DNA of 64,000 nucleotides, taken from NCBI GenBank assembly GCA_964629235.1, contig CAZVQB010000001.1, positions 4,431 to 68,430 of the forward strand, in the 5' to 3' direction. The notes beneath the pieces are model-generated. The model was not told the DNA's origin, ran no database searches, and saw only the letters and a program-made list of their open reading frames with translations. The position numbers were made by a program, and so were the translations under genes. Each line of letters starts with the position of its first letter. Position 1 is the stretch's first letter. The DNA comes from an uncultured Candidatus Saccharibacteria bacterium. GTDB taxonomy: Bacteria > Patescibacteriota > Minisyncoccia > Phycocordibacterales > PALSA-1337. Positions 6,119-20,139 of the stretch are shown here, in pieces.

Positions 6119-7201
6119 TTGATGTATTATATTTCAGTTATGTCAGACAAAAATTCTACAAATCCAAAATCCTCTTCAGTTTTATATAGGAAATACAGAC
6201 CATACAATTGGTCTGACGTTGTTGGGCAAGATCATATAATATCTGTTTTAGAGAATTCTATTAAACTTGATAAGATCGCTCACGCATATCTTTTTTCTGG
6301 TAGTAGAGGCACGGGTAAGACCTCTATTGCTCGTATATTCGCTCGTGCACTTGGTGTAAGTGACAATGATGTATATGAGATGGATGCAGCTTCAAATCGC
6401 GGTATAGACGATATACGAGAGATTCGTGATGGTGTAAGTGTTCTACCTTTTGAATCAAAATATAAAGTCTATATCATAGATGAAGTACACATGCTTACAA
6501 AAGAAGCATTCAATGCTTTGTTAAAGACTTTGGAAGAACCTCCAGCACATGCGATTTTTATCCTAGCTACAACTGAGACTGATAAAATTCCTGAGACGGT
6601 TCTTTCTCGATGTCAGATTTTTAGTTTTAAAAAGCCGAATAGGGAAGTATTAAAGACTTTGGTAAATAAAATAGCTAAGAAAGAAGGATTCACTATAGAT
6701 ACTGGTGTTGCTGATCTTATCGGTTTACTTGGAGATGGATCTTTTAGAGATACTTTGGGAATATTACAAAAAGTTATAAGTTCATCTTCTGATAAAAAGA
6801 TTTCAATGAAGGAAGTTGAAGAGATAACTGGAGCTCCAAGAGGGGAGTTGGTAAATAATTTTATATCTTCGCTAGCTTATGGTGATAAGGATCAAGCTTT
6901 TTCAATAATATTAAAAGTAAAAGAAGCAAATATTTCAATAAAGACATTTATTTCATTGATTCTAGAAAAAATTAGAATAATTTTAATTCTAAAGAATGTA
7001 AATTCTATATCATCAGTTGAATCGTTGAAACAGAGTGTATCAGAAGATGATTGGGTTATTTTGGAAAAGATTTCAAAAGATGAAAAAAGTAAAGTAGGAT
7101 TAAGTATGCTAAGAGAATTGTTGAAGGCTTATGATTTGACTTCCTATTCTTATATTGAGACTTTGCCTCTAGAAATAGCTATTGTTGACATAGTTTTATA
7201 G
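6119..7201 (+). CDS. dnaX: DNA polymerase III subunit gamma/tau (short form)
   Basis: AAA+ clamp-loader motifs (GSRGTGKTSIARIFARAL, SRC motif LSRCQIF); only 360 aa. Confidence 0.85.
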   Translation: MMYYISVMSDKNSTNPKSSSVLYRKYRPYNWSDVVGQDHIISVLENSIKLDKIAHAYLFSGSRGTGKTSIARIFARALGVSDNDVYEMDAASNRGIDDIREIRDGVSVLPFESKYKVYIIDEVHMLTKEAFNALLKTLEEPPAHAIFILATTETDKIPETVLSRCQIFSFKKPNREVLKTLVNKIAKKEGFTIDTGVADLIGLLGDGSFRDTLGILQKVISSSSDKKISMKEVEEITGAPRGELVNNFISSLAYGDKDQAFSIILKVKEANISIKTFISLILEKIRIILILKNVNSISSVESLKQSVSEDDWVILEKISKDEKSKVGLSMLRELLKAYDLTSYSYIETLPLEIAIVDIVL

Positions 7202-7204
7202 CGT

Positions 7205-7428
7205 GATACTATTCTGTGGACGGGTTCCTTAAATATTATGAAGCATATTATCATTGCTCGGCGTATCGGAGGAAAGCCGGAGAGAGTCGTGAGGTTGATC
7301 GAGATTTCGACACCCCCACCGAACAACGCAGTCGTGATCAATGACCACTGGAAACACAGGGTCATTCGACAAGGCACATAAGAGTCGCCAAACAGCCCTG
7401 TACGTACTATACGTACAGGGTCTTTTTT
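7205..7428 (+). ncRNA. structured ncRNA candidate downstream of dnaX (contains GAGGAAAGCCGGAG; class unresolved)
   Basis: About 220 nt GC-elevated ORF-less segment. It ends in an intrinsic terminator (ccctgtacgta-ctat-acgtacaggg + T-run, 7396-7428). Its motif tcGGAGGAAAGcCGGag resembles the RNase P P4 strand GAGGAAAGUCCGG and SRP domain IV purine-rich motifs, but the element is too short for a typical RNase P RNA. Confidence 0.3.
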
Positions 7429-7439
7429 CCACAATTTTA

Positions 7440-7695
7440 TTTGAAATCAGATTTGGGTTGTGATAATCTAGATTTTGGCTAGTTAATGACTCAAACCTAT
7501 GAATAAAGGTACCGTATTGCATCACCGAATCGGTCAAACCGATTCAATGCGCAAAAACAGGCGGAAGAAGGGATATACTCTTCCTGTCGGAATCAGACGT
7601 CATATGAGGAAGAGTTCTGAGGAAGGAGGTGAACACAAGTAGTGTTTGAAGAGTTCATCGTTCAATCCCCGAGTACATGTACTCGGGGATTTTGT
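7440..7695 (+). ncRNA. second possible small RNA / leader with its own terminator
   Basis: Purine-rich repeats (ggaagaaggg, gaggaagag, gaggaaggagg) are followed by a hairpin atccccgagtacatgtactcggggat + TTTGT at 7665-7695. No convincing ORF is present. Confidence 0.2.
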
Positions 7696-7736
7696 ATACT
7701 TGAGTTTATCTCGTTTTTAATGTATTTTAATAGTAT

Positions 7737-7810
7737 TGCGGGATCGTATAATGGTAGTACAGCGGCCTTTGAAGCCGTGAATCTTGGTTCGATTCCAAGT
7801 CCCGCAGCCA
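7737..7810 (+). tRNA. tRNA-Gln (anticodon TTG)
   Basis: Manual fold: acceptor TGCGGGA/TCCCGCA (7/7 pairs), anticodon stem-loop GCGGC-CTTTGAA-GCCGT with anticodon TTG, T-arm CTTGG-TTCGATT-CCAAG, encoded CCA. Total length 74 nt. Confidence 0.85.
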
Positions 7811-7916
7811 ACATGAGCTAGCTCAAAGATAGCTAGTTTACAAACAAAAACACCTCTTAAATTTGAAAGGCGTTTTTGTTGTTTTATATTGCAACAAAAT
7901 ATGCCATAATCTTTAT

Positions 7917-8090
7917 ATGAAAGATGGTGTCAAAAAGCTGGGAGAAAATATCAAAAAATTTAGGATCAAAAAAGATGTTAGCTAAACAGAACTTGCTCGT
8001 GTGTTGAGCGTTGTTTGATCTTTTGTGAGTAATATCGAGATTATATTGATGATGCAATTAGAGCTAGTTGCTAAGCTATGCAGACTTAAA
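7917..8090 (+). pseudogene. decayed XRE-family HTH regulator gene (in-frame TAA and TGA)
   Basis: Translation gives MKDGVKKLGENIKKFRIKKDVS*TELARVLSVV*SFVSNIEI..LELVAKLCRLK. This matches the XRE/Cro-C1 HTH pattern (..LSQ.ELA..LGVSRS.IS.IE.G....LE.L.KL...L) but is interrupted by two stop codons. Confidence 0.55.
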
Positions 8091-8146
8091 TTTTTATTTC
8101 ATACTCGTGCTAGTAAAAATACTATTTTCTGATAATATCATGGGTA

Positions 8147-8662
8147 ATGAATAAACCATTATTTACTAATGAATATATAGGAAACGCTGGTGTTAAATAT
8201 GTTTTCAAATACTACGATTCAGATAATTTTGACCATTTACCAAAAGACAGAATAAAGCAATCCTACGCTGTAGCTTTTTATAAAGACAAATTTCTAGTTG
8301 TTAATAATATAAAAAATCCTAAACAGCAATACGGGCTAATTGGAGGTAGTGTTGAAGAGGGGGAAGATCCAAATGAAACTTTAATCCGAGAAATTATGGA
8401 AGAATCAAGGATGAAAGTCTTAGAATATAAGTTAATTGGTTATCAAAAGGTGATTGATACTCGAGGAATTCAAAAAGATTTTTATCAACTAAGATATTTT
8501 GCAAGAGTTGAACCTGATGGTTTTTTTATTTCTGATCCTGCAGGTTGTGTTACAGAGATTATTGAGTGCACAAAAGATGACTATAAAAAATATTTTGATT
8601 GGGGTGAGATAGGTGATTATATAATTAAAAGAGCATATGAAATTAAACAACCATCAGCATAA
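8147..8662 (+). CDS. NUDIX hydrolase
   Basis: Nudix box GGSVEEGEDPNETLIREIMEESRM matches GX5EX7REUXEEXGU. Confidence 0.65.
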   Translation: MNKPLFTNEYIGNAGVKYVFKYYDSDNFDHLPKDRIKQSYAVAFYKDKFLVVNNIKNPKQQYGLIGGSVEEGEDPNETLIREIMEESRMKVLEYKLIGYQKVIDTRGIQKDFYQLRYFARVEPDGFFISDPAGCVTEIIECTKDDYKKYFDWGEIGDYIIKRAYEIKQPSA

Positions 8663-9683
8663 TTATTTGATTTCTACTTTTGATGGTTTGGGCGATGGAG
8701 TTATTTACTATCCAATTATTAGGTCTGTTGCAGAAGGCAATCCACGAAATCTATTTTATTGTGCGACAAACTTATTTTTTTCTGATAAAGACATATTAGA
8801 AAAACTAGACTTACCAAAAAATATCAAATTCGTTACTGAAGAATTTAGAAAGTTTCCAGAAGAAAACTATAATTATATATTAAACTTTTTATCTGAAAAT
8901 AATATAAAAAAAATAATAAATTTGAGATTTATCGGTAGAGATTTTGAAAAAGGCTACTTCAAATTCAAAGATCATGCAGAATCTAATAATCTAGATTTAA
9001 ATTTTTATGATAGTGAAAATATTTCTTTTTTTGAGAGCAACCATAACGCTCGGTCTGTGGTTTTAAAGATATTTGAAAATACCCTCGGTGGTGAAATTAA
9101 ATACAATGAATTTATACTGAAAACTATTTTCCCAGTATCTGATGATTCCGATGCTATTTTTATAAATATGCACTCAAGAGGCGATTTTAAATTATGGAAT
9201 ATCAATAAATGGTCTGAAGTTATCTCATCAATGGTTTTTTATGGTAAGAAGGTTTATGTTTATGACGGTTATGATGAAAAGGAAAAGGAATATACACGAA
9301 AAGTATTTGATAACTTAAGCCAAATCGTGAAAGGTAAAATTAATCTTTTGGTTGATAGTAATTTATTAGATTTGATATCTACTCTACAAAAGGCCAAATT
9401 GTTAATCTCAGTTGATTCTGGATTAATACATTTGGCTGATGCTGTCGGAGTCGAGTCTATAGGTATTTATCTAACCACCTCTCCTAGAATGTGGGGAGGT
9501 GTAACTGAAAAATTTCATTTTGTACAAAGTCTCCACATGAGAAATTGCAAAAAATTCTATAAACAATTTGGTATGTGTATGAATGGTAAGAAAAAATGCG
9601 AAGAGATTGAGGGTGAGAGTGACGATATAGACATTCATGAAATTTTTAATATAGTTAATAATATCTATGAAAAAGAAAATTAA
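8637..9683 (+). CDS. glycosyltransferase family 9 (heptosyltransferase-like)
   Basis: C-terminal motif LISVDSGLIHLADAVGVESIGIY matches the GT9 DSGpmHlAaAlg signature. Confidence 0.6.
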   Translation: MKLNNHQHNYLISTFDGLGDGVIYYPIIRSVAEGNPRNLFYCATNLFFSDKDILEKLDLPKNIKFVTEEFRKFPEENYNYILNFLSENNIKKIINLRFIGRDFEKGYFKFKDHAESNNLDLNFYDSENISFFESNHNARSVVLKIFENTLGGEIKYNEFILKTIFPVSDDSDAIFINMHSRGDFKLWNINKWSEVISSMVFYGKKVYVYDGYDEKEKEYTRKVFDNLSQIVKGKINLLVDSNLLDLISTLQKAKLLISVDSGLIHLADAVGVESIGIYLTTSPRMWGGVTEKFHFVQSLHMRNCKKFYKQFGMCMNGKKKCEEIEGESDDIDIHEIFNIVNNIYEKEN

Positions 9684-11505
9684 GCTAGCAGTTTTTGTTG
9701 ATGGAGATTTTATACCATCATATGATGGTGCTTCTAACCGATTTCACTATTTATCTAGGTATTTATCAAAACAAGGTATTGACCTGACTATATTTCATGG
9801 GTATAGAGGTTGGTCTAATATCTCTTTAATAAAAAAAGAGCCCTTTAAGACATACGTTTTTCCGATAGATAATTACTACAATAATCTTGAATTAATAGCA
9901 TCAATTTTGATTAAGGAAGGAGTAAACATTATTCAATTTGATAATCTTGAACCAATTCTCTTACAGGGAATTAAATTATCAAAACTTACTGGCGCTAAAT
10001 TGGTTAGCGAGATGCATTATGTGGTAAGAAGTTTGGCGAAAAGATTAGGCGCAGATAATGAGAGGCTATCTGAGATAGAGAAAATAGAATATGAAGTTGG
10101 TAAAAATATTGATCATTTAATATGTCTGAGTGAGCAAGATAAACCGTCTTTGATTAAGTATTTAAATATAGATGCTGATAAAGTATCGGTTATTCCTAGC
10201 GGGGTAGATATTAATGAGATTAAATACTTTGTTTCAGATTTTAAATCCAGAAATATTGTTTTTCTGGGGAATCTATATTTCAAACCCAATGAGGATGCGG
10301 TTAGGATTATAAAGGAAAAAGTATATCCAAAATTAAAAGATCAAGGTTTTAAATTTACTGTTGGAGGTGATTGTCCTCCGGATATTCAAAAAGAATTAAC
10401 TGATAAAAATTTTACTTTCATAGGCACAGTTCCTAATCTTAATGATTTGTTTAAGAATGCAACTTTTGCTCTGGCCCCCATTTTTGAAGGAACTGGTATG
10501 CGTATTAAATTATTGAATTATTTAGCTGCTGGTATCCCTGTTATAACTACGTCGATTGCTACAAATGGCTTTAACCAAAAAGAAGCTTTTATTGTTGAAG
10601 ACGATGTCTCAAAATACGCAGACATTATTCTAGATTTAGTTAATGATAAGAGGAAATTAAAAAATGTATCTAAAAGAGGACATAAGATTATTAAGAAATT
10701 TTATGATTGGAAAATTGTTGCTAAAAGAACAATTAAGACTTATAAAAATATTTTAAAAGAAAGAAATGTAGAAAAATTTGGTAACCATAGTATATTGAAA
10801 ACTAAAGAACCGGTATGGCTCCAAGAAGCTGTTGCCAAGCAAAGATTTAAACAGATTAAGAATCCTAGTCTACCAAAAGATTTTTCATATTGTGTTATAG
10901 AAAATAATTATATTAAAGATTATACTCTTAAAAAAATAGTTGCTTTGGAAGGTATGCCTGGTGCAGGTAAGACTACTTTTATAAATAGTTATGTAAAAAA
11001 TAATGGTAATATAAAATTCTTACCACAACTAGAGATTAAAAATAGAAAGATTTTAGAGAGAGATAATTTGGAAACAACTAAAATGTTTTTGTCTGCTGAA
11101 AAAGAAAAAAGTGATCTTATTAATCAAATTGCAAAAGAAAATAAGGAAATTGTAATTGATCGAACATTTTTAACTACCTTGGCATATTGTTATGCTAGGT
11201 CGAAAAAACTTAAAAATGATGAATACTCAAAGTTGATAGAGTTTTATAATAAGATTAAAGAAGATATCACTTTCCCTACAAAATTAATTTTCTTAGATGT
11301 TGAGAATAAAAGGAGTCTAGAAAGGAGAAGGCGATTTGCTAATAACCCCGATTACTCTAATTGGTTTGATGAAGAATTTTTAAATCATATGCGCGAATTT
11401 TATAAAAAAGAAATATCCAAATTTATTAACATAAAAGTTGATTATGTCGATACAACAAGTATGTCTATAGAAGAAGTTAGCAATACATTAAAAGAAATTA
11501 TATGA
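9667..11505 (+). CDS. bifunctional protein: N-terminal GT4/GT1 glycosyltransferase fused to C-terminal P-loop (TMPK/dNK-like) kinase domain
   Basis: Residues ~1-360 carry the GT4 signature (GTGMRIKLLNYLAAGIPVITT). Residues ~420-612 carry a Walker A motif (VALEGMPGAGKTTF) and a DR(Y)-like motif (VIDRTFLTTLAYCY) typical of thymidylate/deoxynucleoside kinase folds. Confidence 0.6.
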   Translation: MKKKIKLAVFVDGDFIPSYDGASNRFHYLSRYLSKQGIDLTIFHGYRGWSNISLIKKEPFKTYVFPIDNYYNNLELIASILIKEGVNIIQFDNLEPILLQGIKLSKLTGAKLVSEMHYVVRSLAKRLGADNERLSEIEKIEYEVGKNIDHLICLSEQDKPSLIKYLNIDADKVSVIPSGVDINEIKYFVSDFKSRNIVFLGNLYFKPNEDAVRIIKEKVYPKLKDQGFKFTVGGDCPPDIQKELTDKNFTFIGTVPNLNDLFKNATFALAPIFEGTGMRIKLLNYLAAGIPVITTSIATNGFNQKEAFIVEDDVSKYADIILDLVNDKRKLKNVSKRGHKIIKKFYDWKIVAKRTIKTYKNILKERNVEKFGNHSILKTKEPVWLQEAVAKQRFKQIKNPSLPKDFSYCVIENNYIKDYTLKKIVALEGMPGAGKTTFINSYVKNNGNIKFLPQLEIKNRKILERDNLETTKMFLSAEKEKSDLINQIAKENKEIVIDRTFLTTLAYCYARSKKLKNDEYSKLIEFYNKIKEDITFPTKLIFLDVENKRSLERRRRFANNPDYSNWFDEEFLNHMREFYKKEISKFINIKVDYVDTTSMSIEEVSNTLKEII

Positions 11506-12401
11506 AAGATATAAGTGTTATTATTCCAACATACCAACATAAAGATAGAGACATTCATCTGGGACTACTTCTCGACACCCTCCTAGTTGAAAGTAATCTA
11601 AAATATATTAATGAAATCTTAATCATAGACAATGGGTGTGCTTTAGATGGAAGTTCATTTGAAACTCAAAGTGCAGAAATAAAAATAATTAAAGAGCCTT
11701 TATTAGGTTTAAATAATGCTAGAAATTGTGGAATTTCTAATGCTAGTGGATTTATATTTGCTTTTCTAGATGACGATGTAACTGTTTCTAAGGATTGGTC
11801 TAAAGGAATATATAATGGATATAACAATAGAGGTGTTTTATGTGTTGGTGGCTCCGTCTCGTTGGGTGAGTATAATCTGAAATTGCCAAATTGGTTATCT
11901 GATTATTTCAAAAGGTTTTTGTTTCCTCCGAATTTTCCAGAAAATTCTGGAATACTAAAATTGCCATATTATTTGATTGGTGCAAATATGTCTTTCAAAA
12001 AGGAGGTCTTTGATAAATTTGGTCTATTTAATTCAGAACTGGATCGTAAAGGCAATAATCTATTATCCAATGGAGATACTGAATTTATTATTAGATTACC
12101 CACACAGTCTATATGGTATTCAGATGAAGCTCGAGTATCTACAATTGTAAAAATAGATAGATTTACCAGATTTTTTATGATTAAAAGATTATTTTGGCAA
12201 GGAATATCAGACTATATTATGGTTAAAGAAAATGGTACTTCTAATTTCTATGATAAGAATGAGATATTTTTCAGTAATAAATTTTTAAAGATATTTTTTC
12301 ATAAATTAGTCACACTCAAACTTTTTGAAGTTTTTTGTATTGTAGTTAGAATTGTGGGATTTCGTATGGGAATTTTTTATATTAAAGAAAAGAGGGGGTA
12401 G
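11502..12401 (+). CDS. glycosyltransferase family 2
   Basis: GT2 motifs ISVIIPTYQH, DNGC and FLDDDV. Confidence 0.65.
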   Translation: MKDISVIIPTYQHKDRDIHLGLLLDTLLVESNLKYINEILIIDNGCALDGSSFETQSAEIKIIKEPLLGLNNARNCGISNASGFIFAFLDDDVTVSKDWSKGIYNGYNNRGVLCVGGSVSLGEYNLKLPNWLSDYFKRFLFPPNFPENSGILKLPYYLIGANMSFKKEVFDKFGLFNSELDRKGNNLLSNGDTEFIIRLPTQSIWYSDEARVSTIVKIDRFTRFFMIKRLFWQGISDYIMVKENGTSNFYDKNEIFFSNKFLKIFFHKLVTLKLFEVFCIVVRIVGFRMGIFYIKEKRG

Positions 12402-12419
12402 AATCTTTCTACCCCCTCT
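12391..12419. terminator. perfect 12-bp palindrome hairpin spanning both convergent stop codons (bidirectional terminator candidate)
   Basis: AGAGGGGGTAGA-atctt-TCTACCCCCTCT. The left arm encodes the ...KRG* end of GT2 and the right arm (reverse complement) encodes the ...KRG* end of the TMPK-like gene. Confidence 0.6.
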
Positions 12420-12972
12420 TGATGATCTTGAGTATTTCGTTGACGGCGTTTTGAGGACCATCGACGGTATCGTCAATATGGTGTTGTATTCGTTTTTTAA
12501 ATTCCACAAGGCACCGACGCTCCATCTCTTGTCGAAGATTGAATTTCTCCATGTCCTTGACTGGTCCACCACGGCTGTAAAGTCGTTGTTGTCGCTTTTC
12601 TTCGTCACAAACTATCAGGAAAACATAGTCCGGCATGCGACAAAGGTGCTCGAAAGTTTCCTTGATATCGAGCCCATACACTGTGTGATAGCATATAGTC
12701 GACCAGATGTACTTATCACAGACAACGCTTTGGGTTTCCAGGGTCCTGCTAATCTCCCAGGAGGCATGTGCCACCGAAGAGAGATAAAACAAAAATCTGG
12801 ATCCTAGCGAAAGCCTGAGATCAGCCTCTTCCCGCATCTTACTGAATGGTGCGGGGGGAGTGGCGTAGTACTTGGCTGGTAGTTGTTGAGCCAACATCTT
12901 GGAAACTTCCGTCTTGCCGCTACCAGAAATACCTTCGATCACAATGAACAAGTTTGGATTTTTCTGATCCAT
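12409..12972 (-). CDS. thymidylate-kinase-like P-loop nucleotide kinase (GC-rich, likely horizontally acquired)
   Basis: Walker A motif FIVIEGISGSGKTEV and a DRY-equivalent CDKYIW; 187 aa. Local GC is roughly 45-48% against ~30% in neighbouring genes. Confidence 0.55.
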   Translation of the reverse strand: MDQKNPNLFIVIEGISGSGKTEVSKMLAQQLPAKYYATPPAPFSKMREEADLRLSLGSRFLFYLSSVAHASWEISRTLETQSVVCDKYIWSTICYHTVYGLDIKETFEHLCRMPDYVFLIVCDEEKRQQRLYSRGGPVKDMEKFNLRQEMERRCLVEFKKRIQHHIDDTVDGPQNAVNEILKIIKRG

Positions 12973-13039
12973 TTCATACTCCTTTCTGGTTAGGTGTCTT
13001 CCATAACTATATAACTAATATAGTTATGTGTCAATTTTA

Positions 13040-13555
13040 TTAAAAATAAGATTCTAACTTTTTTGTTAAATCGTATAGTTGATCTTTCCCAGCTAGTCCT
13101 TCGCAGTGTTCAAGAAATGTTCTAATGCTAGTAATATATTTGTCGTTATTAACGAACTTAGGAAACAGATGCTGTTCATTTCTTGCGTATATTTTTATAA
13201 AATTTCTCATATGGGAGGTAAAATCAGCCATCTTTATTAATTTACCGCCATTAGATATGGTTTTGATCCCTTCGTAATATTTAAGTTTTTGTTGTTCGTT
13301 ATAGTTTTTAGGGTGAGATACTTCTTGAACCATATCTGCTACTTCTCTTGAAAAATTTTCGGTTATTTCTTCATATGTTGCTGAAGTGTCTTCGAGCGTA
13401 TCGTGCAGTAATCCAGCTATTAAGACAGTTTCATCTTGGACTTCAAATTCATCTCTTAAAATTTGAAATACATCTAGAAAGTGATTCTTTTTGCTGATTT
13501 CTTCGAATTTTTTTGTTGCATATTCTTTTGCTAATTCTATTTTTGTGTGGTCCAT
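13040..13555 (-). CDS. HD-domain phosphohydrolase of RelA/SpoT type (small alarmone hydrolase-like)
   Basis: Motif IAGLLHDTLEDTSATYEEI matches the ppGpp-hydrolase HD signature (AALLHDvvEDT); 171 aa with no synthetase domain. Confidence 0.55.
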   Translation of the reverse strand: MDHTKIELAKEYATKKFEEISKKNHFLDVFQILRDEFEVQDETVLIAGLLHDTLEDTSATYEEITENFSREVADMVQEVSHPKNYNEQQKLKYYEGIKTISNGGKLIKMADFTSHMRNFIKIYARNEQHLFPKFVNNDKYITSIRTFLEHCEGLAGKDQLYDLTKKLESYF

Positions 13556-13605
13556 ATAATTTATATTGATTGTTTTTTTAAGATATTTTAACTATTATAT
13601 GAGTT

Positions 13606-14385
13606 ATGTCAGATATAGTAAATATATATAGGAAAAATACCACAAATACTGGAGATAAGTTTTCTACTCCAACAAAATATTTTGATTTTTTGAAAGATGT
13701 TGAAACTTTAGATTTCACTGAATTACCCAGAGAAGAGTTGGCTAAATATATAAAAGATAAGATTGTCATATTTGGCGGGGGTGGCTTTCTAGAACAAGAA
13801 TATTTTAAAGAATATATGAAGACTTTATTAGGAGCTGATACGAAAATGCTAGTTGGTTGGGGGGTAGGACATAACATTCATGGAGTTTCAGATGTACTGT
13901 TTAATTCTTATGATTACAAAAAAGAATTTGATCTGCTGGGTGTTAGAGACAGTGTTTCAGAAATGGATTGGGTTCCTTGTTCTAGTTGTATGCATGATGC
14001 ATTTGATAAAAAATATGAAATAAAAAATAAAATTGCAATTTATGAACATAAAAACTTTCCACTAAGAAGAATGAATCAGGATTTCCCAAAAATGAAAAAT
14101 GGGGATTCTTTCGAGGAGATTATAGAGTTTTTAGGTAGTGCAGAACTTGTCGTTACTAATAGTTATCATGGTGCTTATTGGGCAACCTTACTAGGGCGCA
14201 GGGTCATCGTCATGCAACCATTTTCTTCTAAATTTTTTAGTTTTAAACACCCATTAGTTGTTGCTAATAATTTTGATGTAAAAAATATTGAAAATATGCC
14301 GATGTATCCGAACGCTTTGGAAGAGGCAAGGGAAGCAAATCTATTATTTTCCGAGAAGGTTTCCCAATTGTTAAAACTAAGTTAG
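13606..14385 (+). CDS. polysaccharide pyruvyl transferase-like protein
   Basis: GGGGFL near the N-terminus and VTNSYHGAYWATLLGRRVIV near the C-terminus resemble PS_pyruv_trans (CsaB/WcaK) motifs. The assignment is weak. Confidence 0.4.
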   Translation: MSDIVNIYRKNTTNTGDKFSTPTKYFDFLKDVETLDFTELPREELAKYIKDKIVIFGGGGFLEQEYFKEYMKTLLGADTKMLVGWGVGHNIHGVSDVLFNSYDYKKEFDLLGVRDSVSEMDWVPCSSCMHDAFDKKYEIKNKIAIYEHKNFPLRRMNQDFPKMKNGDSFEEIIEFLGSAELVVTNSYHGAYWATLLGRRVIVMQPFSSKFFSFKHPLVVANNFDVKNIENMPMYPNALEEAREANLLFSEKVSQLLKLS

Positions 14386-14394
14386 TAAAACGGA

Positions 14395-15129
14395 ATGAAA
14401 ATAATTTCTCTAAATACTTGGGGTGGTCGAGTAAAGGAACCTTTTATTGACTTTGTAAAGAAGTACAACAATACAGATATATTTTGTTTTCAGGAAATAT
14501 ATGACAATGCCGAAGAAATAATGAAGAGGCATTATCCGGAAGATTCTTTTAATATATTTAGTGAACTTAAAGAATTACTACCTAATCACAATGGTTTCTT
14601 TCGACCAGTTCTACAAGGAGTATACGGTTTGGCTATTTTTATTAAAAAGGAGATTCTTCTTTTGGAGGAGGGTGAAATTTTCATCCATCGTTCTGATAGT
14701 AAATTAGTAACAGATGGACATCATTCAAGAAATCTTCAATGGGTTAAATTTAGTTTTAAAAATGAACTATTTACTGTTATGAACGTACACGGATTATGGA
14801 ATGGAAAAGGTAAAACAGATACTCCAGAAAGAATTGCACAATCAAACTTGATAAAGGAGTTTGTTAATAAAGCAGAAGGTAAGAAAATATTGGTAGGAGA
14901 TTTTAACCTAAATCCTGATACTGAAAGTGTTAGGATTTTGGCAAAAGATATGAAAAATCTCATAGAAGAATATTCAATAGTTTCAACTCGTACCAGTCTG
15001 TACAAAAGACCTGGTAAATTTGCAGATTATATTTTTGTTTCTCCTGATGTCGATGTGAATAATTTTACAGTATTACCAGACGAGGTTTCTGACCACGCCG
15101 CTCTTTCTTTAGAGCTAAAATTGGTTTAA
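14395..15129 (+). CDS. endonuclease/exonuclease/phosphatase (EEP) family protein
   Basis: ISLNTWGG N-terminus, VGDFNLNPD and C-terminal SDHAALSLEL match EEP catalytic motifs. Confidence 0.65.
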   Translation: MKIISLNTWGGRVKEPFIDFVKKYNNTDIFCFQEIYDNAEEIMKRHYPEDSFNIFSELKELLPNHNGFFRPVLQGVYGLAIFIKKEILLLEEGEIFIHRSDSKLVTDGHHSRNLQWVKFSFKNELFTVMNVHGLWNGKGKTDTPERIAQSNLIKEFVNKAEGKKILVGDFNLNPDTESVRILAKDMKNLIEEYSIVSTRTSLYKRPGKFADYIFVSPDVDVNNFTVLPDEVSDHAALSLELKLV

Positions 15130-15170
15130 ACTTCGTACTATACAGTCAGCAAATAAGTTATACTCTAAAT

Positions 15171-15608
15171 ATGAAAAATTTACCTTCAGAAATTCTTGAA
15201 TATCTTAAGACCCAACGAATTGGAGTTTTTGCAATTGAGATGTTGGACGGCTCACCTCATGCTGCAACTGTACACTTTGCACATGCAGAAAATCCATTTC
15301 AATTTTACATCGAGACTGGCATCAATTGTAGAAAAAGTGAACCACTTTTAAAAAATAGTTCTGCGCGGGCGACACTTGTTATCGGTACTGATGAGAATAA
15401 TATGAAGACTCTACAAATGGACGGAATTGCACGTATTGTTAAAGATTCAGAAAACGATTTCTTTATAGACACTTATCTTAAAAAATTTCCAAGCAAAGAA
15501 GGTAAAGTAAAAGATCCTGAAGCAGTTTACATTATTTTTACTCCTACGTGGTATCGATTCACTGACTGGAAAACTTCAGAAGGGAAGAAGATTTGGATTT
15601 CGAACTAG
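15171..15608 (+). CDS. pyridoxamine 5-prime-phosphate oxidase-like FMN-binding split-barrel protein
   Basis: General-stress-protein-26/PNPOx-like pattern (RIGVFAIEMLDGSPHAATVHFA...YIETG). Confidence 0.4.
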   Translation: MKNLPSEILEYLKTQRIGVFAIEMLDGSPHAATVHFAHAENPFQFYIETGINCRKSEPLLKNSSARATLVIGTDENNMKTLQMDGIARIVKDSENDFFIDTYLKKFPSKEGKVKDPEAVYIIFTPTWYRFTDWKTSEGKKIWISN

Positions 15609-15675
15609 GTTCTAGCTTATTAAACATTTTTGCAATATAATAAAAATAGAAACCATATTCTAAAGGATTCACCAA

Positions 15676-15837
15676 ATGAAAAAAGCTCTTACTGCTATCG
15701 GGATGTTGTATGTTCTTGTTGGTATGTTCATTGCAACCGATCTCAACCCTTTGCTTTACTGGAGCTGGTATCGTAACGGTGTGAACGAGTTGCTCAATAC
15801 CATGTTTAGTATTTATCCAGCATTACCACTTCTGTAG
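15676..15837 (+). CDS. small (53 aa) hydrophobic membrane peptide
   Basis: MKKALTAIGMLYVLVGMFIATDLNPLLYWSWYRNG... with an AGGA-like RBS upstream and a terminator hairpin (aaaccacc...ggtggttttt) ~90 nt downstream. It is below the ORF-track size cutoff. Confidence 0.3.
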   Translation: MKKALTAIGMLYVLVGMFIATDLNPLLYWSWYRNGVNELLNTMFSIYPALPLL

Positions 15838-15970
15838 CTCATATCGATATTCATTGTCGCGAATATCGTGACATTCTCAAAAGAAGTAAAGCGATTAATA
15901 CTTACTTAAAATGCGATAGAATTAAACCACCCCGCATAAACTGAGGTGGTTTTTCTGTTATAATTACCGC

Positions 15971-16429
15971 ATGCAAAAAATTCATTTTTCAATACAAATA
16001 AACGCTAAAAAGGAAAAGGTGTGGGATATTATGTTAAATGACACAACATACAGAGAATGGACGAAACCTTTTCATGAAGGTTCGTATTACAAGGGAGACT
16101 GGAGTGAAGGATCAAAGATGCTTTTCTTAGGCCCAGATGAGACAGGTAAAAAAGAGGGAGGTATGGTTAGTAGAATAAAAGAGAATCGTAAATATGAATT
16201 TATTTCTGTTGAACATTTAGGTTTCGTGATGGATGGCATTGAAGATACAACAAGTGAAGATGTTAAAAAATGGACCCCTGCTTTCGAGAATTATACATTT
16301 ATAGATAAGGGCGGTGGTACAGAATTAAATATTGATATGGAAGTAGCAAATGATGAATTTAAAACTATGTTTGAAGAAACATGGCCAAAAGCGCTTTTGG
16401 AATTAAAAAGGGTTGTAGAAAGATCATAA
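15971..16429 (+). CDS. SRPBCC/AHSA1-domain protein (activator of Hsp90 ATPase homolog-like)
   Basis: N-terminal IHFSIQINAKKEKVWDIMLNDTTYREWT is typical of AHSA1/START-like SRPBCC proteins. Confidence 0.55.
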   Translation: MQKIHFSIQINAKKEKVWDIMLNDTTYREWTKPFHEGSYYKGDWSEGSKMLFLGPDETGKKEGGMVSRIKENRKYEFISVEHLGFVMDGIEDTTSEDVKKWTPAFENYTFIDKGGGTELNIDMEVANDEFKTMFEETWPKALLELKRVVERS

Positions 16430-16539
16430 TGTAGTTTCACAATAAAAAATATAAACACACTTTGACTAGTGTGTTTTAATATGGTATTTTATGTATGAAT
16501 TTTTAGTTCTTCAGACATAAACCCATAGAAAAACTTACA

Positions 16540-17256
16540 ATGACGACAAGTGAACTCAGTTGGAACAAGGTTTCGTTTTTGGCCAAACTGCAGTTATATT
16601 TCAAATCAACGAATGACTTTAAAATGAAGGTATGGTCAGCAAATATTCTTGAACGTGCCGAAGCCTATTCCGCACTGTCTAGTTGCTATTATAGTATAGT
16701 TGGAACTGGAATAGCACATTTCAAAAACATCTTCAGAGATGATTGGAAATTTTTCTTATTTCCAGTGCTGACTGTGATTTGGTTTTTAACATGGTTTCCA
16801 TTAGTGCTTGGATGTTATATAAATATGCTTCGCTATTCGAACCAGGTAGTGAAGCTTATTGGTTACGACACCATGACAGTTGATCAGCTTGATATTCGAC
16901 AGAGTATACTACGTTGTACCTTTCAATATAAAGAGGCGAAATCTTGTATATATTTAGCACTTAAGAAAAATCCTGAAAAACCACATACAAGAGGATTGCT
17001 AAATGTTGGACTTGCAGAAATCCTTATAAAAGATGGTGATAGGATGAGCGCGAAATTTGAGTTGGCGCGTGCTGTAACTGAAGCCAAAGTTTCAGAAGAA
17101 GATAATCCCCAACAAGCTGTGCGTATTTACAGACATTGCGCAAGATTATACTTCAGACTTAATGATAACTTCATAATAGATGGGGAACTTTGTCTTCATA
17201 AAGCAAGAACTATTGCTTTAAAAATTGAAGCCATGGACCAAGTGATCAAAATGTAA
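16540..17256 (+). CDS. hypothetical membrane protein
   Basis: 238 aa with central hydrophobic helices (FFLFPVLTVIWFLTWFPLVLGCYI). It is followed by a strong terminator at 17261-17294. Confidence 0.3.
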   Translation: MTTSELSWNKVSFLAKLQLYFKSTNDFKMKVWSANILERAEAYSALSSCYYSIVGTGIAHFKNIFRDDWKFFLFPVLTVIWFLTWFPLVLGCYINMLRYSNQVVKLIGYDTMTVDQLDIRQSILRCTFQYKEAKSCIYLALKKNPEKPHTRGLLNVGLAEILIKDGDRMSAKFELARAVTEAKVSEEDNPQQAVRIYRHCARLYFRLNDNFIIDGELCLHKARTIALKIEAMDQVIKM

Positions 17257-17260
17257 ATCT

Positions 17261-17294
17261 CGCCTCGTGTTTTATACACGGGGCGGTTTTTTTA
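17261..17294 (+). terminator. intrinsic terminator
   Basis: cgcctcgtg-ttttata-cacggggcg + T7. Confidence 0.7.
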
Positions 17295-17330
17295 TTTTGT
17301 TTATATTTTAAAGCATTATAGAATAGCAAT

Positions 17331-17813
17331 ATGAATACAATACCCAAAAATACAATTTGTTTATGGTTTGATAAAGATGCAGAAGAAGCAGCAAATTTTT
17401 ATGCTTCTGTTTTTCCTGATAGTAAAGTAAATGCAATTTTTCGTGCGCCAGATGATTTCCCAGGTGGAAAGAAAGGTGATGTACTCACGGTAGATTTTAC
17501 CGTTTGCGGAATTCCTTGTATTGGTTTAAATGGTGGACCGATTTTTCCACACAGCGAAGCCTTTTCTTTTCAAATAGCTACTGACAATCAAGAGGAGACT
17601 GATAGATATTGGAATGCAATAGTATCAAATGGAGGAAAAGAGAGTGAATGCGGTTGGTGCAAGGATAAATACGGTATATCTTGGCAGATAACACCGAGAA
17701 CTCTAATTGAAGCGTTGGCAATAGGTGGTAGTGAAGCTGAACGGGCCTTTAAAGCAATGATGACTATGAGTAAAATCGATGTGGCGGTTATAGATAAAGC
17801 TAGGAGAGGGTAG
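17331..17813 (+). CDS. PhnB-like VOC-family protein (3-demethylubiquinone-9 3-methyltransferase domain)
   Basis: N-terminus ICLWFDKDAEEAANFYASVFPDS matches the PF06983 signature. Confidence 0.6.
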   Translation: MNTIPKNTICLWFDKDAEEAANFYASVFPDSKVNAIFRAPDDFPGGKKGDVLTVDFTVCGIPCIGLNGGPIFPHSEAFSFQIATDNQEETDRYWNAIVSNGGKESECGWCKDKYGISWQITPRTLIEALAIGGSEAERAFKAMMTMSKIDVAVIDKARRG

Positions 17814-17868
17814 ATTTGTAACAAGATCGATACTTGAATAATGTCACCACTTGATATAACCTAGCGTA

Positions 17869-18615
17869 ATGATAAGCAGTCTTTCGTCTATACAAAACAA
17901 TATCATTTCAAAGTTGAAGAATTCTAAGTCCCTTAGATATAGCGAGCTTCAACCAAGAGATATTCCAAATGATCTTTTTAACTATCATTTGCAACATTTA
18001 GTTAAAAAAGAGCTAATAATAAAAAATCCAAAAGGTTATTCGCTTTCAGAAAGAGGAATCAGATATGTAGCAGACCCATATCCGAATAACAATGTAATCT
18101 CGAGCCTCTTTAAAGTAAATGTTATAACTATTGTTTCTAGAGTCAGAAATGGAAAAATTGAAATATTAAACCAAATTAGAAAATCAAATCCATCATTCGG
18201 TAAGGTTGGAGTAATGGGAGGTGTTGTTTTAAAGGGAGAGCTTATAGAGGACGCAGCAAAAAGAAAGTTTAAACAAGAAACAGGGTTGGATGCGAAATTT
18301 AAACATATTGGAACAGAACGTAGAATCATGTATAAAAATGGAGAATTATTTTCAGATTTACTTTTCCCTATAATGTATTCAAGAAGATATACTGGCGAGT
18401 TGTTGGTCGATTCTGATTTTGGTCATAATATGTGGGTTTCAATAAATCAAGCAATTGAAAACGAATCTGGTGAATTCGATTCAATACGAAGTATAAATAT
18501 CGTTCTAAAATCAATTAAAAATAATAAAATTAAAAATTTGCCAATCTTTTTTAAAGAAGAAATTCAAAGTGACAATATAGAGAATAATAAAAATGATACA
18601 TTGTCTACCGAATAG
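17869..18615 (+). CDS. winged-helix (N-terminal) + NUDIX (C-terminal) fusion protein
   Basis: The N-terminal ~70 aa have a wHTH pattern (LFNYHLQHLVKKELIIKNPKGYSLSERG). A Nudix-like box GGVVLKGELIEDAAKRKFKQETGL follows. Confidence 0.45.
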   Translation: MISSLSSIQNNIISKLKNSKSLRYSELQPRDIPNDLFNYHLQHLVKKELIIKNPKGYSLSERGIRYVADPYPNNNVISSLFKVNVITIVSRVRNGKIEILNQIRKSNPSFGKVGVMGGVVLKGELIEDAAKRKFKQETGLDAKFKHIGTERRIMYKNGELFSDLLFPIMYSRRYTGELLVDSDFGHNMWVSINQAIENESGEFDSIRSINIVLKSIKNNKIKNLPIFFKEEIQSDNIENNKNDTLSTE

Positions 18616-18685
18616 ACACTCTCTTTTTTATTTTTTATGAAAAGTAAATAATACTATCGGACTCATTAAGTCTTTAATAAATATT

Positions 18686-19516
18686 ATGAGAAATATAAAA
18701 AATGAAATAGCCACTAAGGGTCATATAACTTTAGAGTATCCGTCTAACCTCAGAAAAGCTGTAGAAGAAACGAATACGCTTTGGGAGAAATTTTGTGAAT
18801 TGCCTGAAGATGTAAAAAGTAGTCTTGTGTATAGCAACAATTCAGACGGGGTGGGGTATGAACTTAAAGATGGAATAGGGAAAAATGCTGATCGAAAGGA
18901 GAATTTTGATATAACTATAGCTGGAGAAAAATGGTTAGTTGAAAATACAAGTAAAATCAAAGAACCAGTTGTTCTAGATTTCTTAAAGAGTGCAGTATCG
19001 CTTGTTGATATTATGAAATCTACTGTATTTGACTTTGCACTCTATCTTGAACAAGTATACGACATACAAGGATTTCATAATGAAGTAAGAGACAGTAAAG
19101 ACTCGTTCTTTGTAAGGTTCATTCACTATTTCGGTAATAGAAAAGATGGAGAAGAAACAGCTTCTGCACATGTTGATCAAAGTGGTTTTACTTTTCATTT
19201 GTATGAAAGCCAGCCAGGATTGCAGGCATTAAGTTTTAGAGGCGATTGGGAAGATATGCCAGTGTCGTCTGGTGAGACCGTTATAATACCCTCGATGCAG
19301 TTACAACTAAGAACAAAAGGGAAGTTAAAGGCATTGTGTCATAGAGTTGTAGCAACTCAGACTACTGCAAAAACCGGCCGGTATTCAGCAGTTTGTTTTG
19401 TACAATTAAAAAATACTTCAAAATACGATAAAGATAAGCACGGCCGTTTACAAGAAAAGACCCCAGGTTTTAATTATCAAATGGCGTACGAAGAATTCCA
19501 AGAGCTCTTCAAATAA
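18686..19516 (+). CDS. 2OG-Fe(II) oxygenase family protein
   Basis: HVDQSGFTFHLYESQPGLQAL matches the HxD...GLQV iron-binding core. A downstream LKALCHRVV provides the distal His and Arg. Confidence 0.55.
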   Translation: MRNIKNEIATKGHITLEYPSNLRKAVEETNTLWEKFCELPEDVKSSLVYSNNSDGVGYELKDGIGKNADRKENFDITIAGEKWLVENTSKIKEPVVLDFLKSAVSLVDIMKSTVFDFALYLEQVYDIQGFHNEVRDSKDSFFVRFIHYFGNRKDGEETASAHVDQSGFTFHLYESQPGLQALSFRGDWEDMPVSSGETVIIPSMQLQLRTKGKLKALCHRVVATQTTAKTGRYSAVCFVQLKNTSKYDKDKHGRLQEKTPGFNYQMAYEEFQELFK

Positions 19517-19550
19517 AAAACACCCGCACGACTGTCGTGCGGGTGAATTG

Positions 19551-20139
19551 CTATTCTCCAGGGTGATTCCAATCAAAGAAAACCCTACCTTCACGTTTGG
19601 TAATGTCTTCATGATCACCACCACTAGGGTCTCTCAAAGGACCAATGTATTTTCCAGGATAAATAGTAAGAATCGATGCAAAAATGTTATGACTATCATT
19701 AAAAATACCGTAAACAATAGAAACCAGTGAGGTTCTCGGTGCTTTGATATCAATAAGATGTTTTGCAACTCTCAATCCGACACTTCGATTGTTAGGATTA
19801 AAACTTTCGAGATGACCAAGGTTGTAGTGTTCAATCGAATCAGTTGACTCCCAACCGATTGTTTCTTCGAAATCGAGAGTAACTACACCCATTTTGCAAT
19901 CCTTGTTCTCATTGAGTGTACGGACGATACTCCTATACATTTCATCGCCAAAGTCGAAATCACCGTCGTATGCAAATTCCTCAAACGTATTCCATTTAGA
20001 GAAATTACCAGCGAGTTCATGATGAACCCCACGAAAACAGGTTCCATTGAGTCTGAGACGCGTTTTCCTTGTATAAAGGATACCAAATTTATAATGGTCG
20101 ATAGTTTTTCTGTAGAAATTTTCAAGATTTTCCTTTCAT
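19551..20139 (-). pseudogene. GC-shifted gene of unknown function requiring a +1 frameshift near its start (frameshifted/pseudo or slippery start)
   Basis: One reading frame is open from 20135 to 19551 (~195 codons). The only ATG (20139) lies in another frame: atg aaa g|gaa aat.... The ORF track splits it into 19883..20125 and 19551..19940. A terminator hairpin is present at 19521-19545. Confidence 0.4.

Follow-up and report, generated by a model that had tools for sequence, protein, structure and literature searches.

What is a glycosyltransferase doing with a kinase domain of the thymidylate/deoxynucleoside kinase type fused to it, and what do the further kinase and phosphohydrolase genes beside it contribute? 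The question is raised by a gene block in a 64,000-nucleotide stretch of DNA (the window; positions 4,431 to 68,430 of contig CAZVQB010000001.1, assembly GCA_964629235.1) from an uncultured Candidatus Saccharibacteria bacterium, which had been singled out in a prediction made from the nucleotide sequence alone (the original prediction). We assigned domains with Pfam at the gathering score and checked for equivalogs with the NCBIfam/TIGR cutoffs; all open reading frames and domain families named by the original prediction were present where it had placed them, each Pfam call being above its gathering score. Comparison with other genomes shows that the block contains a conserved, horizontally mobile cassette that occurs across phyla, with a constant core formed by a GT4 glycosyltransferase coupled to a kinase domain (K), a GT2 glycosyltransferase, and a second, standalone kinase of the thymidylate kinase (TMPK) family, here termed TMPKl. 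Such a cassette may assemble a phosphorylated glycan decoration, a reading that is weighed below against its alternatives. In the window, the cassette consists of the following features (all coordinates are window positions; dNK, deoxynucleoside kinase; aa, amino acids; AF2, AlphaFold2):

8147-8662, plus strand: NUDIX hydrolase (PF00293, 35.9 bits)
8637-9683, plus strand: GT9 (heptosyltransferase-family) glycosyltransferase (PF01075, 75.9 bits)
9667-11505, plus strand: 612-aa GT4::kinase fusion (Glyco_transf_4, residues 20-183; Glyco_trans_1_4, residues 195-327; Thymidylate_kin, residues 427-605)
9667-10761, plus strand: GT4 (retaining GT-B) domain of the fusion (Pfam, AF2 model, Foldseek)
10930-11505, plus strand: K domain of the fusion, a P-loop kinase domain of the dNK/TMPK fold, residues ~422-612 (PF02223, profile, Foldseek)
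11502-12401, plus strand: GT2 glycosyltransferase (PF00535, 53.5 bits)
12390-12420, minus strand: terminator-like hairpin with a 14-bp stem (consensus scan; its presumed function follows from its position only)
12409-12972, minus strand: TMPKl, standalone divergent thymidylate-kinase-family kinase of 187 aa (PF02223, 71 bits)
13040-13555, minus strand: Mesh1-type small alarmone hydrolase (HD_4) of 171 aa, by sequence (PF13328, 40.7 bits)
13606-14385, plus strand: polysaccharide-pyruvyl-transferase-like protein (PS_pyruv_trans) of 259 aa (PF04230, 45.7 bits)
14395-15129, plus strand: EEP-family phosphoesterase (Exo_endo_phos) (PF03372, 57.8 bits)

The genes of the first plus-strand unit overlap successively by 26 nt (NUDIX/GT9), 17 nt (GT9/fusion), and 4 nt (fusion/GT2). 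The hairpin at 12390-12420 lies between the GT2 and TMPKl genes and separates this unit from the converging minus-strand pair, in which the HD_4 gene comes first and TMPKl follows.

For the comparison, the window proteins were mapped onto about 20 related loci from numerous Paceibacteria, a 52% GC organism, and a Siphonobacter element, which gave a set of 22 module loci with the window included. K was fused to GT4 or encoded directly after it in every one of them, and orthologues of GT2, which follows the K domain, and of TMPKl were each present in 19 of the 22. These components are the constant core of the module, and the GT9, pyruvyl-transferase-like, HD hydrolase, EEP, and NUDIX genes are clade-specific or variable add-ons: the pyruvyl-transferase-like gene is confined to the closer clade, GT9 is found there and in L030, EEP and NUDIX appear only sporadically, and in the Paceibacteria loci a pair of TMPKl and Mesh1-like HD_4 genes converges on the glycosyltransferase operon. 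The original prediction had listed these five add-ons with the block, and the comparison shows them to be inconstant; the linkage of kinases and phosphohydrolases to glycosyltransferases that it had proposed is confirmed by a gene order conserved in about 20 loci. The original prediction knew of no described counterpart of the fusion, which is nevertheless not singular: public metagenomes and metagenome-assembled genomes (MAGs) hold more than 50 full-length homologues (46-70% identity, ~606-622 aa) with source labels Paceibacterota, Zambryskiibacteria, Taylorbacteria, or Parcubacteria, some of which the JGI pipeline already labels 'glycosyltransferase.../thymidylate kinase'; GT4 and K are separate adjacent genes in the loci L008, L019, L020, L027, L028, and L030; and a triple fusion GT4-K-GT2 of 918 aa is found in P0019. 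Two fusion genes are split by apparent frameshifts, one inside the kinase domain (L017, 9980-11828) and one inside GT4 (L018, 1592-3476), and are either pseudogenes or assembly errors; the taxonomic labels of the respective MAGs (Saccharibacteria, Methanosarcinales) look like binning errors.

The variants differ in their additional genes and in their surroundings. On an ENA GROS21 scaffold with 52% GC (L030, 4772-9186), the module is one co-directional operon GT4-K-GT2-TMPKl-GT9 with 4-nt start/stop overlaps, flanked by genes for large proteins without a Pfam match (916, 471, and 434 aa). In the cultured Bacteroidota strain Siphonobacter sp. SORGH_AS_0500 (L027; assembly GCA_031453245.1, JAVIYT010000001.1, 6453-11864), it comprises GT2, an APH kinase, a 353-aa P-loop protein on the opposite strand, TMPKl, GT4, and K, and as this set sits between ArdC/RadC/HTH_17 genes and the genes for a TrwC relaxase and a TraG coupling protein, it is cargo of an integrative conjugative element (ICE). 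A kinase of the APH/fructosamine-kinase fold, which includes known sugar kinases, is added together with His_Phos_1 or EEP phosphatases in L019, L020, and L027; in the distant variants L019 (12722-16789) and L020 (12743-14941), the APH-family kinase gene follows GT2 and the phosphatase is of the His_Phos_1 family. Other variants contain a NodU/TobZ-type carbamoyltransferase with a NUDIX gene (L007, L028), methyltransferases, or an ndk gene directly upstream of a split GT4-K-GT2 (L008). No variant contained a transporter, a polymerase, a priming phosphoglycosyl transferase, a nucleotidyltransferase, or a sugar-modifying enzyme, and with the latter two missing throughout, the synthesis of an unusual activated sugar, which had been suggested originally, is not supported. 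Searches with the fusion found no relatives in IMG/VR and only generic GT4 matches among the plasmids of PLSDB.

Had K shown no homology to a kinase fold, the original prediction would have failed; profile and structure agree on the dNK/TMPK fold. K scores 29.9 bits with Thymidylate_kin (PF02223, cutoff 27); its profile finds the deoxynucleoside kinase 8puu as best PDB match (6.5e-9), followed by TMPKs at ~1e-6; and all of the top 50 Foldseek PDB neighbors of a separate K-domain model (mean confidence, pLDDT, 86.8) are dNKs or TMPKs, save one respirasome (complex I) chain, with template-modeling (TM) scores in the range of 0.53-0.70. K has the P-loop EGMPGAGKTT, a D498-R499-T-F501 motif that is followed by 'STLAY' and aligns with 'DRFVLSTIAYQ' of the Aquifex aeolicus TMPK, and the lid pair R553-R554, and thus all three marks of TMPKs, namely P-loop, DR(Y/F/H) motif, and lid arginine. 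Invariant in 49 sequences are G434, K435, D498, R499, F501, S550, R553, R554, and W566. Since P-loop, DR motif, and lid arginine pair belong to these invariant elements, K is predicted to be probably an active kinase.

What K phosphorylates is less readily read from its relatives. By its sequence, K is not a canonical deoxythymidine monophosphate (dTMP) kinase: it reaches only 35.2 of the 83.25 bits demanded by the dTMP-kinase equivalog TIGR00041, and the residues that contact dTMP in TMPKs are not conserved ('REP' reads 'LPQ' or 'PEL', and 'AYQ' reads 'AYC' or 'AFS'). With the dNK family PF01712, K scores 19.9 bits and stays below the gathering score of 27, and the equivalent of the catalytic glutamate of dNKs is a Gln in the clade of the window ('PQL'), with Glu confined to distant members ('PEL'), while the Foldseek similarity to dNKs is as high as that to TMPKs. 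TMPKl is a remote paralogue of K (hhalign probability 98.7%, 17% identity). In an exhaustive profile search, the wider K family consisted mostly of standalone proteins of ~200 aa (56 cluster representatives at E<=1e-30, 1244 at E<=1e-10), and fusions with NUDIX or HAD phosphatase domains occur among its members. One distant family member is encoded on a contig with 70% GC (L032, 3049-8650) next to an Acb5-family gene, a PTPS/QueD-like gene, a DUF2797 gene, and a gene for a 535-aa fusion of a GT4-conflict domain (PF20706) with a staphylococcal nuclease, a phage- or conflict-like setting.

The glycosyltransferase half has the GT-B fold of two Rossmann domains, and its N- and C-terminal Pfam matches both exceed their gathering scores (PF13439, 54.3 bits; PF13692, 70.7 bits). 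An AF2 model of the whole fusion, built on 49 homologues, has a pLDDT of 90.4 and a predicted TM score (pTM) of 0.90, from which the two domains are predicted to form one compact body; the linker before the K domain (residues ~366-421) is conserved and contains a beta-hairpin. Foldseek neighbors of the GT4 part are ManT (7qsg), MshA, GlgM, BshA, PglA, PimA, and WaaG, with TM scores normalized to the target of 0.66-0.77 for MshA, BshA, PimA, and WaaG. On sequence level, these relationships are remote: the GT4 domain alone gave no match in the PDB by phmmer at 1e-4, and its profile only matches of 1e-5 to 1e-8. Of the 70 columns that are invariant in the 49 full-length fusion homologues, 48 lie within GT4. 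The EX7E motif of GT4 enzymes is present with one glutamate only: E274 and the residue at the position of the second glutamate, Asn284 (aligned to 'YEGFSLPAVEAMASG' of 7qsg), are both nearly invariant (at least 90% of the homologues). Some active GT4 enzymes tolerate a change at EX7E, and Asn284 therefore makes the domain a less canonical member of the family without lowering its predicted activity. The second EX7E glutamate contacts the ribose in GT4 enzymes, and Asn284 may hint at an unusual donor nucleotide. We also considered the GT4-conflict family: the GT4 domain of the window did not match PF20706 at E<=0.01, no sensor NTPase was present in the inspected module loci of the L series, and PF20706 appeared only in the very distant hits P0102 and P0105 and in L032.

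The whole of TMPKl can be aligned with type-I TMPKs (best PDB profile match: the Plasmodium falciparum TMPK, 1.4e-14), but with 64.3 bits it also remains below the TIGR00041 cutoff. Its DRY motif reads D-K-Y (in the context C-D-K-Y), with D86 and Y88 invariant and Lys as the majority residue, its 'TREP' motif reads 'TPP', and the NCBI pipeline names its orthologues 'hypothetical protein'. The gene is GC-rich, as had been noticed originally: its GC content is 0.466 and its GC content at third codon positions (GC3) 0.527, compared with a GC3 of 0.17-0.28 for the other genes examined and a GC content of 0.339 for the window. It had been taken as horizontally acquired, but a recent addition to this genome is at odds with the comparison. 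TMPKl is a core member of the module; its orthologues in the closer clade (L001-L005, L009-L012, L018) share the GC3 excess (0.37-0.53 versus ~0.25 in neighboring genes), which is absent in the distant clade; and TMPKl and the fusion have diverged alike from the distant clade, with ~47-48% identity for both. An excess common to the orthologues of a whole clade, together with a divergence that tracks the fusion, shows that the gene is not a recent private acquisition. Xenologous replacement was rejected because of the same parallel divergence, a hidden antisense gene because antisense open reading frames were not conserved among orthologues, and no Rfam family matched within the TMPKl gene.

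The HD_4 protein scores 40.7 bits with PF13328 (cutoff 27.2) and contains the HDxxED motif in 'LLHDTLEDT', and in the PDB it is matched best by Mesh1 from Drosophila and human (3nqw, 9e-14 over residues 14-118; 3nr1; 5vxa). It had been described as a SpoT-type HD hydrolase; the HD_4 assignment stands, and the protein is better termed a Mesh1-type small alarmone hydrolase, as judged by these sequence features. Of the 22 loci, 14 have an orthologue, all of them of Paceibacteria type; L019, L020, L027, and L030 have none. L019 contains a gene for a 286-aa HD_4 protein followed by one for a 378-aa protein with a RelA_SpoT synthetase domain, a split alarmone pair beside the module; this HD_4 protein was rejected as an orthologue of that of the window (phmmer E only 3e-4).

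As TMPKl and HD_4 both belong to families with housekeeping members, they could simply be a dTMP kinase and a (p)ppGpp hydrolase of the basic metabolism that happen to lie beside a glycan operon, and the different HD_4 protein next to a synthetase gene in L019 would agree with such a chance neighborhood. This explanation is largely refuted and hardly tenable, since the link of TMPKl to the module persists across phyla, with shuffled flanks, on an ICE, and within a single operon; since the equivalog score, the lysine in place of the DRY arginine, and the naming of its orthologues all speak against a regular dTMP kinase; and since the island with the cassette, described below, is absent from a close relative that must still make deoxythymidine triphosphate.

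Among the remaining cassette proteins, GT9 belongs to its family by PF01075 but does not score as an LPS heptosyltransferase: its best score with the WaaC/WaaF/WaaQ equivalogs is 53.9 bits with TIGR02193 (cutoff 185.3), over the C-terminal half only. Orthologues are found in L001, L003, L005, L009, L010, L012, and L018, and an orthologue also closes the L030 operon. GT2 has an AglG-like best NCBIfam match (4e-25, below cutoff). We dropped the assumption of an integral-membrane GT2, as a simple hydropathy scan revealed no conserved transmembrane helix in any cassette protein. The pyruvyl-transferase-like protein scores above the PF04230 cutoff of 25.3, but only 173 residues are spread with large gaps over profile positions 21-276 of 280, and the protein had no NCBIfam match and no sequence relative in the PDB; its orthologues are in L001, L003, L005, L009, L012, and L018. 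NUDIX reached no equivalog cutoff and had orthologues only in L005 and L010, with unrelated NUDIX genes near other variants, and for EEP, the only orthologues were those of L001/L002 and one in L019, which lies upstream on the other strand.

In the window, the cassette is part of a variable island with the following further features:

7737-7810, plus strand: tRNA-Gln(UUG), left border of the variable island (ARAGORN; Rfam tRNA, 63.7 bits)
7811-20210, no strand: variable island of 12.4 kb from tRNA-Gln to bipA/typA, with the cassette and small accessory genes (comparison with L029)
7863-8132, plus strand: decayed XRE/HTH_3 regulator gene, a frameshifted pseudogene (fragments in at least two frames)

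The borders of the island became apparent from a syntenic close relative, the metagenome contig L029, whose DnaX is 79% identical to that of the window. Upstream, six genes, dnaX, and tRNA-Gln are colinear in the two, and downstream bipA, yqeY, rmuC, and the genes that follow; between tRNA-Gln and BipA, L029 has only ~1.8 kb with unrelated genes, in contrast to the 12.4 kb with the whole cassette in the window. The same tRNA-Gln is thus kept, followed by a different and much shorter cargo. Because the tRNA-adjacent island is missing from L029, the cassette is accessory in this genome, which agrees with the accessory block postulated originally; a core envelope locus conserved in all relatives with ordinary GC content is not what we found. 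The flanks of the cassette differ in every other genome: in L005, it follows lepA-divIC, and in L001 (JGI Ga0222676_1000031, 8255-10017), it begins directly 3' of the gene for ribosomal protein L5. The spc operon normally continues with S14/S8/L6 after L5, so that the string of ribosomal genes is apparently interrupted or ended there. The dead XRE gene that had been noticed upstream of the cassette is real: its fragments 'KKLGENIKKFRIKKDVS' and 'SNIE...LELVAKLCRLKF' are in different reading frames and match an intact 67-aa XRE protein encoded 5' of the L005 cassette ('KKLGENLRKWRLKKNMSQ...ISNIENG...LEKIAGALRIS'). Within the window, we found neither an att repeat nor an integrase, and neither a repeat of the tRNA-Gln 3' end nor long direct repeats bound the island.

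The rest of the island (15171-19940) is a run of small unrelated accessory genes, none of which was found in L029. By Pfam, they encode a PNPOx-like protein, an SRPBCC/AHSA1 protein, a 238-aa protein without assignment, a PhnB-like protein (PF06983), a 129-aa protein likewise without assignment, a second NUDIX protein with an N-terminal winged-helix domain, and a 2-oxoglutarate (2OG)-Fe(II) oxygenase that matched PF03171 and no other family. On the other side of tRNA-Gln, the ~530 nt between dnaX and the tRNA gene (7202-7736) contain no convincing open reading frame. Part of this spacer can be aligned with the corresponding one of L029, and the bin 7001-8000 is one of the more GC-rich 1-kb bins (0.383, versus the window mean of 0.339). 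No Rfam family came near its threshold in the spacer (best: manA-II, 22 bits versus 100), and the tRNA was the sole match of the Rfam scan.

What, then, could the module do? The best reading in our view, to which we assign a probability of about 0.35, is that, working at the cytoplasmic face, it assembles a decoration of phosphorylated oligosaccharide in a manner similar to that of the lipopolysaccharide (LPS) inner core, with pyruvylation as a further modification in the clade of the window. In this model, soluble glycosyltransferases at the cytoplasmic face would lengthen a short oligosaccharide on an acceptor that already exists in lipid-linked or wall-linked form, and the kinases would phosphorylate the growing glycan, K at a hydroxyl group of the acceptor or the product of GT4 and TMPKl possibly by adding a second phosphate. 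The pyruvyl transferase would add a further anionic group, the phosphohydrolases (Mesh1-like HD, EEP, and NUDIX) would trim or proofread, and a variable surface decoration with negative charge would result. Acceptor, kinase substrates, sequence of steps, and destination at the surface are inferred in this scheme. Of the original suggestions, a phospho-glycan is the one that we retain as the best reading. It is supported by the coupling of K to GT4 in all loci and by the interleaving of kinases with glycosyltransferases in the L030 operon, and the coupling also appears to be physical, given the compact model of the fusion and the triple fusion P0019. GT9, GT4, and GT2 together with the pyruvyl-transferase family point to glycan work, and to our knowledge all characterized PF04230 pyruvyl transferases act on glycans. 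The APH kinases and the His_Phos_1/EEP phosphatases of L019, L020, and L027 suggest that phosphorylation and dephosphorylation of a non-nucleotide hydroxyl are a recurring theme. The tRNA-adjacent island, the changing flanks, and the ICE cargo fit surface-variation cargo, and a set of soluble proteins only, with no transporter, polymerase, or priming transferase, is a pattern like that of the Escherichia coli waa core-assembly enzymes.

Several points weigh against this reading. K and TMPKl are closest specifically to the TMPK/dNK families in profile and Foldseek comparisons, and we know of no characterized member of these families that phosphorylates a glycan instead of a nucleoside or nucleotide. 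The Mesh1-like hydrolase is likewise a nucleotide enzyme in all cases known to us; both kinases, the HD hydrolase, and NUDIX come from families with known nucleotide substrates, and the NUDIX and HAD nucleotidase-like domains to which relatives of K are fused suggest nucleotides again. WaaP and WaaY, the kinases of the LPS core, are built on a protein-kinase fold and not on a P-loop fold, and Paceibacteria are thought to lack LPS. Furthermore, the best profile matches of TMPKl are the PADLOC defense-candidate kinases PDC-M51B (1e-28) and VakA (1e-19), the latter presumably named as a viperin-associated kinase, and a 33%-identical relative of TMPKl (P0191) is encoded beside a gene for a 315-aa viperin-like radical-SAM protein and an integrase gene. 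The P0191 arrangement fits the CMPK2-like kinases that accompany viperins, for which linkage and fusion of viperin and kinase are documented (bioRxiv 10.1101/2023.09.13.557418). The island of the window contains no radical-SAM gene detectable by Pfam, and it is thus not a viperin system.

In a rival reading, K and TMPKl would be true nucleoside or nucleotide kinases that would salvage or re-phosphorylate the nucleotide moiety of the sugar donors, from nucleoside to nucleoside monophosphate (NMP) and diphosphate (NDP), or clear an inhibitory product, and the glycosyltransferases would build an ordinary glycan. The fold and motifs of both kinases are those expected for such a supply or recycling function, Patescibacteria rely on nucleotide salvage, an ndk gene directly precedes the split module of L008, and the conserved Asn284 hints at an unusual donor nucleotide. 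The viperin-associated type of kinase, which TMPKl resembles, offers a precedent for a dedicated NMP kinase that feeds an enzyme consuming nucleotides (bioRxiv 10.1101/2023.09.13.557418). Nevertheless, we consider a nucleotide supply unlikely. With no nucleotidyltransferase or sugar-activating enzyme in any variant, locally formed NDP or nucleoside triphosphate would have no dedicated route into the donor. In their forward reaction, NMP kinases have no use for the NDP that Leloir glycosyltransferases set free, and the ICE copy resides in a free-living Bacteroidota strain with a full nucleotide metabolism, where a supply line seems unnecessary. In addition, the residues by which TMPKs recognize the base (the TREP arginine and the AYQ glutamine) are not conserved in K, and TMPKl lacks the DRY arginine.

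The mobility of the module and the PADLOC matches also bring a conflict function into consideration, in which a phosphorylated, glycosylated nucleoside or nucleotide, such as a thuringiensin-like toxin or an antiviral analogue, would be directed against hosts, competitors, or phages, with the phosphohydrolases serving activation or self-protection. A compact unit of 4-6 genes with no export, polymerase, or priming genes, located on an ICE or, together with an XRE regulator, in a variable island beside a tRNA gene, would suit the synthesis of a small molecule, and tailoring enzymes occur in the variants (the carbamoyltransferase with NUDIX in L007 and L028, the APH kinase, and methyltransferases). 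The closest GT4 structures include enzymes with small soluble acceptors (MshA, BshA, and GlgM), GT4 domains have been predicted as effectors of conflict systems (PMC8195603), and thuringiensin, an adenosine-glucose-allaric acid-phosphate made by glycosyltransferases and a P-loop kinase encoded on a plasmid, is a precedent (PMC4147579). The PADLOC matches concern only the generic kinase family, with none for the glycosyltransferases, and the GT4 domain does not belong to the family PF20706 of conflict systems. Neither IMG/VR nor phage-like settings yielded a homologue, the module comes without a transporter or an evident immunity gene, and additions such as GT9 and the pyruvyl transferase are characteristic of glycans and not of nucleoside metabolites. 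On balance, we regard a small-molecule product as doubtful.

A glycosylation of nucleic acids, which the original prediction had named as its second choice, would mean that the glycosyltransferases act on a modified DNA or RNA base, as they do in T-even phages, and that the kinases make a modified deoxynucleoside triphosphate or activate a hydroxymethyl base. Comparable phage gene clusters exist, with GT-A and GT-B enzymes and sometimes APH/HAD enzymes, which attach mono- or oligosaccharides to 5-hydroxymethylcytosine and whose GT-B enzymes resemble BshA and MshA (bioRxiv 10.1101/2023.12.21.572611). The nucleotide-kinase fold of both kinases, the ICE position beside the anti-restriction protein ArdC, and the location of the distant K relative of L032 on a phage-like contig, close to PTPS/QueD and the GT4-conflict-nuclease fusion, could be understood in the same way. 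Yet Pfam revealed neither a C5-methyltransferase with TET/5mYOX nor a thymidylate-synthase-type (dCMP/dUMP) hydroxymethylase in cassette or island, the 2OG oxygenase of the island matches PF03171 only, IMG/VR holds no viral homologues, and the GT9 and pyruvyl-transferase families have no known activity on nucleic acids. We judge this explanation to be very improbable.

Returning to the phosphorylated glycan decoration, a purely inferred refinement would reconcile the TMPK/dNK ancestry of the kinases with a glycan substrate: K would phosphorylate a hydroxyl, as in dNK-type chemistry, TMPKl would extend the phosphate to a diphosphate, as in TMPK-type chemistry, and the Mesh1-type enzyme would remove the O-diphosphate, a chemistry that is known on ribose. 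That the two kinases are not nucleotide kinases at all and write first phosphate and then pyrophosphate on a sugar hydroxyl of a glycan, with the Mesh1-type hydrolase as eraser, or else that the module makes a glycosylated nucleotide analogue for phage defense or symbiont-host conflict, is speculative, and the chances of these two novel readings appear rather low even when taken together. The former would extend the TMPK and dNK families to a type of substrate new to them, and either would reveal an unrecognized cross-phylum mobile pathway based on an obligate GT4-kinase complex.

All domains of the module are known; what is new is the obligate pairing of GT4 with a TMPK-fold kinase and the cross-phylum mobile module built around it. 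The pairing has so far been present only as automatic annotation, and full-text literature searches found no publication that describes a GT4-TMPK-like fusion or the module. Patescibacteria live attached to other cells, and their surface chemistry is almost unknown; an envelope-decorating mobile cassette would have a direct bearing on host recognition and phage resistance. Depending on the kinase substrate, the module would stand for glycan phosphorylation as a new use of the TMPK fold, for a new link between glycosyl transfer and the turnover of nucleotides, or for a novel natural product derived from nucleotides. As the module also resides on a conjugative element of the cultured Siphonobacter strain, it is experimentally tractable without having to grow a bacterium of the candidate phyla radiation.

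Among the closest known systems are the waa (rfa) genes for LPS inner-core assembly of Enterobacteria, in which WaaC, WaaF, and WaaQ are GT9 enzymes, WaaG is a GT4 enzyme, and WaaP and WaaY are sugar kinases. Like the module, they combine GT9 and GT4 with interleaved kinases in a set of soluble or peripheral enzymes at the cytoplasmic face, there is no exporter in the locus, and their product is an anionic phosphorylated oligosaccharide, as proposed here for the module. The module differs in the dNK/TMPK P-loop fold of its kinases, one of which is fused to GT4, in a GT9 protein far below every heptosyltransferase equivalog cutoff, in its hosts, which are mostly Patescibacteria thought to be without LPS, and in being mobile and patchy and not part of the core genome. 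With the TMPK/dNK superfamily (PF02223, PF01712), the kinases share the fold, the P-loop, the DR(F) motif with 'STLAY', and the lid arginines, but depart from it in their dTMP-kinase scores and in the altered TREP, AYQ, and DRY positions. The viperin-CMPK2 systems likewise link or fuse such a kinase to a nucleotide-using enzyme, with the difference that the partner in the module is a glycosyltransferase and not a radical-SAM enzyme. Mesh1 is matched by the HD_4 protein of the window in structure-database hits, motif, and size, but this protein is encoded in an operon with a TMPK-like kinase that converges on a glycosyltransferase operon, no synthetase partner is present in the island, and non-Paceibacteria versions of the module lack it. 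The thuringiensin cluster of Bacillus thuringiensis resembles the module on cluster level, being mobile and combining glycosyltransferases with a P-loop small-molecule kinase for a nucleoside-sugar-phosphate product (PMC4147579); we claim no sequence relationship, ThuE is shikimate-kinase-like and not TMPK-like, and the dehydrogenases for sugar-acid formation, the carrier resembling nonribosomal peptide synthetases, and the export protein that the thu cluster needs have no counterparts in the module. Finally, MshA, GlgM, and the sucrose-phosphate synthase/phosphatase pair represent GT4 enzymes with a small or phosphorylated acceptor and a phosphatase as partner; the structures of the first two rank with those closest to the GT4 domain. 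Their sequences have very little in common with it, a phosphatase and not a kinase is fused to the glycosyltransferase in these systems, and an enzyme that forms the acceptor is not evident in the module; yet their logic of phosphorylated acceptor, glycosyl transfer, and dephosphorylation would explain why a kinase is fused to GT4 and why phosphohydrolases accompany it.

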